Shown piece after piece: positions 48,805 to 50,716 of a stretch of DNA of 64,000 nt. The position numbers were made by a program, and so were the translations under genes. This stretch comes from Waddliaceae bacterium. GTDB taxonomy: Bacteria; Chlamydiota; Chlamydiia; Chlamydiales; SLFE01. Below the pieces are notes generated by a model, which worked only from the letters and a program-made list of their open reading frames with translations, did no database searches and was not told where the DNA came from. Position 1 is the first letter of the stretch; the number at the start of each line of letters is the position of its first letter. The stretch covers positions 512,001-576,000 of the forward strand of contig CAVYRW010000004.1 of the NCBI GenBank assembly GCA_963771045.1, written 5' to 3'.

Positions 48805-48979
48805 ATTGCCCTAACTCTAAGAAATTCGATTGAAAAGAACAAAAAGTTTTTTGACTATTTTGCAATAAAGTCTGAATTATGATAGCGCAGGAGACAGAAA
48901 AATCTTTGAGGAAGAATCCTGGCTGCCTTCAAGCCAACTGCTCATCCTTGATGAAATCCCTAAAATGCCGCATTGGAAA

Positions 48980-49037
48980 GGCGTTGTTGCATAAATCACC
49001 ACTGAGACCACCGAGCTCACTGAGAGATTATGAGAGA
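48980..49037. repeat. Left extended inverted end with three CACnGAG units
   Basis: GGCGTTGTTGCATAAATCAC-CACTGAGAC-CACCGAGCT-CACTGAGAG-ATTATGAGAGA; 47 of 59 aligned positions match the reverse complement of 50485-50543. Confidence 0.85.
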
Positions 49038-49041
49038 GGAA

Positions 49042-49449
49042 TTAAATGATTAGACGCCTAATCCCATTTTTTAGAAGTTTTACATTGAAATTGATGAGCA
49101 AACCTCTGCCACCACCATTATGCTTAAGATAGGATAGAAGTTGGGCCTCATGAACAGGCAAGAAATTGGCCACAGATTTTATCTCCAAAATAACCTTATC
49201 TTCCACTATCATATCGATCCGGTAGCCTGAGTCTAGCTTTTTATCACGATAAATAATAGGTACTGGTATCTGCCGGTTAACTTTCAAACCCGCAAGGTTT
49301 AACTCGTAGCAAAGACAAGTTTCGTATGTCGATTCAAGCAAGCCTGGACCTAATCTTCGATGAACTTCAATCGCAGCACCTATGATTTCCCCTGTTAAAA
49401 GGTCATTTCTTTTTTGGTTGGCTTCTTCAGTTGTGTGGGTACTAGTCAT
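49042..49449 (-). CDS. GxxExxY protein (PD-(D/E)XK-like nuclease fold)
   Basis: IIGAAIEVHRRLGPGLLESTYETCL, YRIDMIVEDKVILEIKSV, HEAQLLSYLK, GLLINFN. Confidence 0.93.
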   Translation of the reverse strand: MTSTHTTEEANQKRNDLLTGEIIGAAIEVHRRLGPGLLESTYETCLCYELNLAGLKVNRQIPVPIIYRDKKLDSGYRIDMIVEDKVILEIKSVANFLPVHEAQLLSYLKHNGGGRGLLINFNVKLLKNGIRRLII

Positions 49450-49533
49450 CTTTTCTCCAAAAAGGGCGAATGCGAGCTTGCCGACAAATACCTAATACTC
49501 TAATTTTTAGTTGCAACAAATTGGAGGATCAAG

Positions 49534-50478
49534 ATGAAGGCAAAATATCGCATTCGCAACTGGAACGACTATAACAAATCTCTTATTCAAAGGGGAAGCA
49601 TAACTGTTTGGTTTTCTGAAGATGCTATCAATAAGTGGATGGCTCCAAAAGAAATAGGAAAAAAGGGGCGTCCAAAACTCTATTCTGATGACGCTATTCT
49701 CACCGCGCTCATTATTCGATCGGTTTTTCATCTTCCATTGAGAGCACTCGAAGGATTTTTGACATCTCTTGTTATGATTTTATCTGTTGGTTTATCGATT
49801 CCTTCTTATACTCAAATTTGTCGGAGAGCTAAGTTGTTGGGGCAAGAGTTGAAGAAACTTTCGAAAAAAAAAGTCACCAATATTGTAATCGATTCAACCG
49901 GTTTGAAAGTGTACGGAGAGGGTGAATGGAAAGTTAGGCAGCATGGAATCAGTAAAAGGCGAACATGGAGAAAGCTCCATCTGGCAGTCTGCCCTGACTC
50001 TCACGAAATTATTTTCGAAATTCTTACTGAAAATAACGTTGCAGATTGTGAAGTGTATCCAAAACTTCTCGAGGTAATGCCGAAATCAGTTAAGCGCACA
50101 TATGGAGATGGGGCTTATGATACTAAGCGATGCTATGCTGCAAATGTAGTTCACGGCTCAATTCCTATTATTCCACCCAATAGGAATGCTGTTTTTCGAG
50201 AAAACATATCTCCTTCTTGGAAGATGCGGAATATCAGTTTGCTGGAAATTTCAGGTTTAGGAGGTGATGATGATGCAAGAAAATTATGGAAAAAGTTGAA
50301 AGGTTATCATCGTCGATCACTTGCAGAAACAGCCATGTTTAGATTTAAACGATTCTTTGGAAATGATTTAAGAAGTAGAACTCTGGAAACCCAAAGGGCT
50401 GAATCAAGGGCAAAATGTGAAGCACTAAATATAATGACAAAGCTGGGAATGCCTGAAAGTGAATTAATAGCAGCTTAA
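49534..50478 (+). CDS. IS5-family (IS903 group) DDE transposase
   Basis: YRIRNWNDYNKSLIQRGSITVW, IDSTGLKVYGEGEW, WRKLHL, GDGAYD, GYHRRSLAETAMFRFK. Confidence 0.95.
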   Translation: MKAKYRIRNWNDYNKSLIQRGSITVWFSEDAINKWMAPKEIGKKGRPKLYSDDAILTALIIRSVFHLPLRALEGFLTSLVMILSVGLSIPSYTQICRRAKLLGQELKKLSKKKVTNIVIDSTGLKVYGEGEWKVRQHGISKRRTWRKLHLAVCPDSHEIIFEILTENNVADCEVYPKLLEVMPKSVKRTYGDGAYDTKRCYAANVVHGSIPIIPPNRNAVFRENISPSWKMRNISLLEISGLGGDDDARKLWKKLKGYHRRSLAETAMFRFKRFFGNDLRSRTLETQRAESRAKCEALNIMTKLGMPESELIAA

Positions 50479-50484
50479 ATCAAA

Positions 50485-50543
50485 TCTCTCATATTCTCTC
50501 TGTGCGCTCTTGTGAGCTCTGTGGTTAATTACGCAACAAAGCC
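50485..50543. repeat. Right extended inverted end with CTCnGTG units
   Basis: TCTCTCATATTCTCTCTGTGCGCTCTTGTGAGCTCTGTGGTTAATTACGCAACAAAGCC. Confidence 0.85.
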
Positions 50544-50716
50544 CATTGGAAAACCTACCTAAAATTTGTAATAAATTAACCATTCATTTTTAAAATCTTA
50601 ACATTTCTTCTTTAAAATGAATTCCAATGGATAGGAGAAGTTTCAATATTTGAGGAAAATAAAAATTTTATTGTGAACTAATGAAGGCTTGTTTATTGAT
50701 GGAGGTTTAGGGAAAG

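Follow-up and report, generated by a model that had tools for sequence, protein, structure and literature searches.

An IS903-group transporter insertion sequence fused with a repeat-armed GxxExxY cassette in Waddliaceae

Introduction

The window analysed here, a stretch of 64,000 nt from a Waddliaceae bacterium, contains an insertion sequence (IS) whose transposase shares its ends with a gene of the GxxExxY family, and the question raised by this locus is how such a gene came to lie inside an IS and what it may do there. The GxxExxY family is very large, with at least 8000 candidates in our search, and three papers of the searchable literature name it, among them PMC8934634, in the available part of which it is an incidental annotation next to a reverse transcriptase, and PMC12085832; no mention of the profile TIGR04256 was found there. 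No published account of this element, or of GxxExxY as cargo of an IS, was found in the main texts of mostly open papers, and an entry in ISfinder is possible.

Anatomy of the element

The element is 1564 bp long (48980-50543) and is bracketed by two copies of a 9-bp target-site duplication, CATTGGAAA, at 48971..48979 and 50544..50552 (both on the + strand), with a xerC-like gene on one side and an unannotated ORF on the other. From the left it consists of an IS903-type tip, GGCGTTGTTGCATAAAT (48980..48996, +); a repeat arm of CACTGAG, CACCGAG and CACTGAG at 9-nt spacing followed by a GAGA-rich tail (48997..49038, +); the GxxExxY gene (49042..49449, - strand, 135 aa), for which a PD-(D/E)XK-type fold is predicted; a divergent spacer of 84 bp (49450..49533); the gene for an IS5-family, IS903-group DDE transposase (49534..50478, +, 314 aa); a right arm, CACAGAG..CACAAGAG..CACAGAG (50485..50526, -), which is inverted with respect to the left arm and directly 3' of the transposase stop; and a right IS903-type tip, GGCTTTGTTGCGTAATT (50527..50543, -). 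The left arm is the downstream arm relative to GxxExxY, and arms of this type are also found beside free GxxExxY genes.

Coordinates and profile matches agree with a preliminary description of the locus, which had reported two intact divergent genes 84 bp apart within a 9-bp duplication. The GxxExxY ORF matches TIGR04256 with 146.9 bits (cut-off 35) and PF13366, its sole Pfam match, with 141 bits. The transposase ORF matches NF033579 with 289 bits (cut-off 140) and is ~44% identical to IS903B transposases across 99% of its length, which together with the 9-bp duplication and the 17-bp tips upholds the assignment to the IS903 group made in that description. It has D120, D192 and E265 and a Y-R-E-K pattern (Y258-R261-E265-K272).

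The similarity between the two ends extends for ~59 nt at ~80% and is built in two layers, a 17-bp IS903 tip and then an arm, with 4 mismatches in 18 between the left and right tips and with the words CAC(A/T/C)GAG recurring at a period of 9 nt inside both. As the repeat arms sit inside the tips, the inverted ends are ~59 nt long and not ~18; the IS903-like tips had thus been recognised correctly at both ends, their similarity having been taken to stop at ~18 bp. What had been missed is the nature of the cargo, a GxxExxY cassette armed with repeats whose arms lie inside both ends of the IS.

Within the spacer lies a promoter-like block, TTGCCG-17nt-TAATTT (49478-49506), which by eye is common to the region upstream of the transposase in cargo-less sister elements and would act as a promoter; a consensus scan for promoters and terminators gave matches at chance level, this block being below its threshold. 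The single arms fold as hairpins no better than shuffled sequences (z 0.2-0.8), no Rfam match to a structured RNA was found in the element at E up to 0.1, and no antitoxin or methylase gene is present within the 1564 bp. With the two genes pointing away from each other, a transcript of either would terminate in a single arm and never include the two together, and pairing between arms, if it is relevant, would be at the level of DNA.

The window also contains, outside the element, a long collagen-like (GPT/GAT/GDT) repeat gene in two frames at 53634-55632, probably as a result of a frameshift in the repeats or a sequencing error; two overlapping ORFs at 51215-51954 which look like a single gene for a caspase-domain (PF00656) protein interrupted by a frameshift; and genes for a succinylarginine dihydrolase (AstB) and an aldehyde dehydrogenase at 45071-48804, directly downstream of a xerC-like gene and on the same strand.

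Copies, mobility and occurrence

The source genome contains 16 full copies of the 1564-bp element which differ at only 7 alignment columns, with the GxxExxY frame intact in all 16 and the transposase intact in 15. A perfect 9-bp duplication surrounds 12 of the 16, every 9-mer being different, and the other four are without matched flanks, one of them abutting the end of a second IS of 1.4 kb. The association of the two genes is not due to chance, given 16 near-identical copies of which 12 have distinct duplications, and the element has recently multiplied. A 17th, mosaic copy (C4:1701314-1704285) has its own 9-bp duplication, a near-identical left part and a right part of 78% identity, and the 1.4-kb second IS, which from reading its sequence seems IS256-like, sits inside its GxxExxY gene.

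The preliminary description had proposed a transporter IS in which both genes move as one unit and had suggested looking for further copies with both genes and other duplications; this is what the genome contains, GxxExxY being carried by all 16 full copies at their different sites. A one-off capture, with GxxExxY missing from the other copies, had also been considered, and this, like an assembly artefact, is excluded by the multiple copies and by independent contigs. Another genome of the same genus (G001) has at least 5 near-identical copies and an orthologous site without the element, and identical transposases are found in a Waddliaceae (Chlamydiota) assembly (L021-L024).

Contigs from four sequencing runs were examined, of which two bridge both genes (X2 with 2 differences at the gene junction, X13 with 0), three join the left end to other flanks and one, X3, contains an apparent empty site. 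In the X3 contig CATTGGAAA is single and is followed at once by ACCTAC, the six bases with which the right flank opens, an arrangement expected of an empty site; this contig has 13 differences over 107 nt of the left flank. No contig of the four runs holds the whole unit in one record, so that the support from reads which the preliminary description had looked for exists for the gene junction but not for the full span. At least 75% of the sampled element words are present in 19 soil or salt-marsh DNA runs, of 20 runs listed, and these 19 may represent few campaigns, one of which may be the source. An RNA run (X20) yielded one contig of 217 nt that lies within GxxExxY and has 7 differences; it is not taken as evidence of expression.

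The target preference is merely AT-leaning (67% A+T over 13 duplications), and a stop-free frame of more than 200 codons runs across 4 of the 13 rejoined target sites. Among plasmids no record has 80% of the element, and 8 records contain GxxExxY relatives of less than 60% identity; hybrid tip-plus-arm ends were found in 0 viral contigs.

Several other loci of the source genome are related to the element. A piece of 1005 bp (C4:997659-998663) is 100% identical to the promoter region and transposase and is without tips, arms, stop codon or duplication, for which an assembly error or an insertion not made by a transposase are options. Decayed remnants of related elements lie at C2:86186-86491 and C1:38398-38576, one of them with both arms and the C-terminus of a transposase. 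Finally, there is a second, distant family of IS5/IS903-like transposases (44-46% identity) at C4 48248-49138, 400009-400899, 956428-957318 and 2230311-2231192, beside which no GxxExxY match was found.

Cargo-less relatives and the origin of the hybrid ends

The closest points of comparison are cargo-less sisters of 1.05-1.14 kb, with transposases that are 45-62% identical, near-identical tips and 9-bp duplications, and on this evidence this type of transposase would need no partner. In the sisters the promoter-like block is within a few tens of bases of the left tip and, as the spacer of the present element retains this block, the cargo would have entered just inside the left tip.

Arm words were counted on 84 distinct right ends of related transposases. 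Where the transposase identity is at least 62%, 6 of 8 ends have two or more such words inside the tip (of the other two, L203 has one arm word and L206 none) against 1 of 76 below 62%. The mean end similarity beyond the tip is 0.71 in 5 arm elements compared with 0.44 in 22 cargo-less elements. Since arms of this type are found on either side of free GxxExxY genes (at 60 of 74 loci, see below) and are present at just 1 of the 76 more distant IS903 ends, the IS would have taken up a whole cassette that was already armed with repeats. A tree was built from 60 of the 96 distinct transposase rows. Of its 10 rows that bear arms or cargo, 9 form a clade with 100/100 support that spans families f1, f7, f29 and f37 and a metagenome contig; the tenth, the arm-bearing L230, is outside, and the AU test does not reject a grouping of all of them in one clade (p-AU 0.167).

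The tip-plus-arm pattern is present in 26 of 401 genomes of the phylum, the reversed control giving 0. Many short derivatives of 71-659 bp have perfect 9-bp duplications and are without all or most of GxxExxY, and of 30 tip-plus-arm loci that were opened many are derivatives of 71-267 bp, 6 having perfect 9-bp duplications and some retaining a C-terminal remnant of GxxExxY. In these bacteria the hybrid ends have evidently given rise to a family of short non-autonomous elements. Concerted evolution of the two arms was considered and found to be weak, as an arm's own partner is its best match in 4 of 5 gene-bearing elements and in 8 of 15 overall.

Other kinds of extended ends exist in the same group: chlamydial IS903-group ends at L211, L212, L213, L018 and L019 are longer and contain a small internal palindrome, and short elements at L238, L240 and L245 (genomes G404, G234 and G314) have IS903 tips with a variant arm, CACAGAG-ATGGGAAAC-CACAGAG. 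A transposase query of G234 and G314 found no autonomous parent of these short variant-arm elements.

GxxExxY cassettes outside insertion sequences

To place the cargo among its relatives 80 metagenomic GxxExxY loci were fetched, of which 74 could be scored and 6 were dropped for short flanks. At 60 of the 74 the inverted alignment of upstream and downstream flanks beats all 100 shuffles, compared with 7 of 74 for the direct-orientation control, and these inverted flanks are largely made of the arm words of the element. An IS903-type transposase is present at 1 of the 74 loci, where the layout of tip and arm is identical, and most of the spread of GxxExxY must therefore have occurred by other means. 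The suggestion that the IS offers a route for the patchy distribution of these genes holds only in part, and as the main route the IS903 element is ruled out by this count.

The closest GxxExxY relatives are mostly on short contigs of 1-2 kb, which hints at residence in an IS. A free relative of 78-80% identity (L004, genome G002) is without tips or transposase, and at L275 tip and arm are present with the transposase absent nearby. In the source genome a motif scan located only 2 arm sites without tips, compared with 16 intact nuclease copies, and the nuclease is thus not visibly multiplying arms there. One of these sites (C4:1320130-1320220, approximate) is an arm-arm hairpin that has neither tips nor a gene and lies upstream of a guaA-like start, and the other (C4:887800-887900, approximate) is a lone arm before what appears to be a decayed GxxExxY start.

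A second fusion in another IS5 subgroup

A genome of another family (G016) contains an element of ~1.40-1.42 kb with GAACCTGTTCAAAAT-type ends and TTA/TAA flanks, whose two-frame transposase matches NF033580 with 142 bits (cut-off 110). It carries an arm-GxxExxY-arm cassette (TIGR04256, 143.8 bits) 3' of the transposase and inside the ends, so that the position and orientation of the cassette differ from those in the IS903-group element. This fusion is multi-copy: 5 of 9 loci examined are complete elements (L290-L293, L296), 9 places match the stretch from the end of the transposase to GxxExxY at 83-86%, and many copies have a deleted GxxExxY. The locus L006 is also a member of this second fusion and not a free cassette.

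Relatives of the G016 element in other genomes are cargo-less and ~0.86 kb long. In genome G072 a deleted form (L308) has the original right end before the cassette and a second end after it, which suggests capture through a distal end. Judged from these sequences, a different IS5 subgroup has captured the same kind of cassette independently, and capture has taken place at least twice. That a distantly related IS made the same capture makes it likely that the GxxExxY family uses transposons as vehicles.

Conservation, exchange and predicted fold of the nuclease

The residues of the GxxExxY protein are intact (G36-E39-Y42, D79, E89, K91, Q103 and Y107), and in an alignment of 100 sequences E39, D79 and E89 are invariant and K91, Q103 and Y107 at least 90% conserved. 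IS-borne GxxExxY genes show pN of 0.08-0.29 against a saturated pS of ~0.7-0.86, and the gene, catalytic residues included, is intact in elements whose transposases are just 68-73% identical.

The gene also appears to have been exchanged between element lineages and with free cassettes, of which the mosaic 17th copy and the free relative L004 are two signs. Between L001 and L203 pS is 0.72 for GxxExxY and 0.32 for the transposase, and the IS-borne GxxExxY of genome G011 is 77% identical to an outside cassette and 68% to the gene of the present element, its grouping with outside cassettes having an SH-aLRT of only 89 in a tree of few columns. As the genes have not always travelled together, the purifying selection may in part date from a free-standing phase, and this may weaken the case for a function inside the IS.

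A first AlphaFold model, made from a shallower alignment, had a pLDDT of 64 and no Foldseek match; the model from the 100-sequence alignment reached a pLDDT of 92, and with it Foldseek returned nothing at E up to 0.001, the best match having an E of 0.016. A sequence search of the PDB was empty. The nearest solved folds are Cas4 SSO0001 (Z 7.8), R.SwaI (7.0), BpuSI (7.0) and Hjc (6.1), with BglII also among them, all at Z <8, which is below the reliable level of the tool, and with 7-20% identity; at these same Z values most of the top fold rows are of the PD-(D/E)XK superfamily. On this model GxxExxY is a predicted PD-(D/E)XK-type nuclease.

What the nuclease may do in the element

The reading that we consider somewhat better than an even bet is that the DDE transposase moves the unit whilst the predicted nuclease is carried with it and likely has its own arms as a target, the IS being a vehicle. 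A repeat-armed GxxExxY cassette would have entered a ~1.1-kb chlamydial IS903 element at a point past the left tip and ahead of the promoter of the transposase, after which the inner arm would have been lost and an arm would have come to sit inside the right tip. The DDE enzyme alone would carry out strand transfer from the 17-bp tips, as in the cargo-less sisters, and the nuclease, likely not needed for the jump, would recognise the arms and might nick or cut arm DNA, for which the only guide is the analogy with SsnA at its repeats. The nuclease would be kept intact and swapped among element lineages and free cassettes, the IS serving to raise the copy number of a second selfish module. A stronger form, which we put forward only tentatively, is that GxxExxY and its arms of 9-nt period are a previously undescribed selfish system of nuclease and repeats which has a recurrent tendency to fuse with DDE ISs, and that in this hybrid the nuclease cuts the arms in both ends and so actively promotes spread or retention, making this a two-enzyme IS assembled from two distinct mobile systems.

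It would seem a little less likely again that GxxExxY is a TnsA-like accessory transposition factor, recruited by the arms and processing the element ends or donor-site intermediates, as might be argued from the presence of arms directly inside the tips at both ends and their persistence whilst synonymous sites saturate, from the co-occurrence of the gene with the transposase across four families, and from fold neighbours that include Holliday-junction resolvases and Cas4. However, transposition of the cargo-less sisters leaves the same 9-bp duplication. A co-evolved partner is made less likely by the swapping of the nuclease gene between lineages and by the presence of its cassette type in another IS5 subgroup, where its position and orientation are different; furthermore, 4 of the 16 copies are without matched flanks, an outcome expected of replicative rearrangement or of recombination between copies. 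At the other extreme the gene could be a neutral passenger whose cassette landed once and is carried until deleted, the arms persisting as extra DNA for the transposase to bind. The many derivatives of 71-659 bp that have lost most or all of the gene and still have perfect duplications are what this would predict, as is the scarcity of free arms in the source genome, yet the gene is intact down to its catalytic residues alongside transposases of 68-73% identity, it is intact in 16 of 16 copies (though these are very young), and it was captured at least twice, which leaves neutrality rather improbable.

The preliminary description had also raised defence or addiction, in which the nuclease would benefit the element through the host, by anti-phage activity or by addiction. 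Its restriction-like fold would suit such a role, but no support was found, given the absence of an antitoxin or methylase gene from the 1564 bp, PADLOC 2.0 results that consist just of marginal matches to Cas4/Cas4b (E 0.014-0.017, over ~39 residues), and the free loss of the gene in derivatives, and we regard this as the least probable of the explanations. The function of GxxExxY is directly testable, as there is a recently active element of 1.56 kb, a transposase of a type for which assays are standard, and a candidate substrate in the arms.

Comparison with known systems

The fold shared, weakly (Z <8), with Cas4 (SSO0001), R.SwaI, BpuSI and Hjc gives no substrate for the nuclease. In Tn7, TnsA is a nuclease of restriction-enzyme fold that cuts the second strand and is an obligate partner. 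The element resembles Tn7 TnsA/TnsB in having a nuclease with a predicted restriction fold beside a DDE transposase; it differs in having close sisters from which the nuclease is absent, and the best 50 fold rows do not include TnsA.

With IS903 and IS903B the element shares the ~44% identity of the transposase over 99% of its length, GG(C/T)-TTGTTG tips and the 9-bp duplication that Table 2 of PMC3281130 gives for the IS903 group. By the entries of that source it is unlike them in length (1564 bp against 1050-1054 bp), in its second, divergent gene and in its two-layer ends of ~59 nt as opposed to repeats of 15-27 bp; with two genes in 1564 bp, where the group typically has ~1.05 kb and no second gene, it is to be regarded as an IS903-group variant.

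The cassette itself recalls the Ssn nucleases, which, as set out in the available text of PMC11893778, cleave single-stranded DNA at their cognate repeat and are encoded by a small single-domain gene flanked by inverted repeats of 20-50 nt (SRM/NTS), with gene-less repeats elsewhere, and whose IS-like architecture was remarked on by the authors. The likeness lies in a nuclease gene between inverted repeats, as at 60 of 74 GxxExxY loci, whereas Ssn proteins are GIY-YIG nucleases, GxxExxY is predicted to be of PD-(D/E)XK type, and single arms here are not hairpins; that text describes no fusion inside a DDE IS.

Finally, a transporter IS (tIS) is defined, in the part of PMC9330008 at hand, as a derivative of an IS whose ends enclose a passenger gene, and the present element is like a tIS in that its passenger lies inside the IS ends and moves along with them. 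The passenger of a tIS is not required for transposition, and the signs of this here are the indirect ones of cargo-less sisters and gene-less derivatives that have 9-bp duplications. What is new is that a transporter IS of the IS903 group has become fused with a GxxExxY cassette armed with repeats and that a parallel fusion exists in a second IS5 subgroup; two captures by different subgroups mean that mergers between ISs and nuclease cassettes of this kind are recurrent. Unlike the passenger of other tIS, the one found here is a nuclease cassette that brought its own repeat arms, and these arms are now part of both ends of the element.
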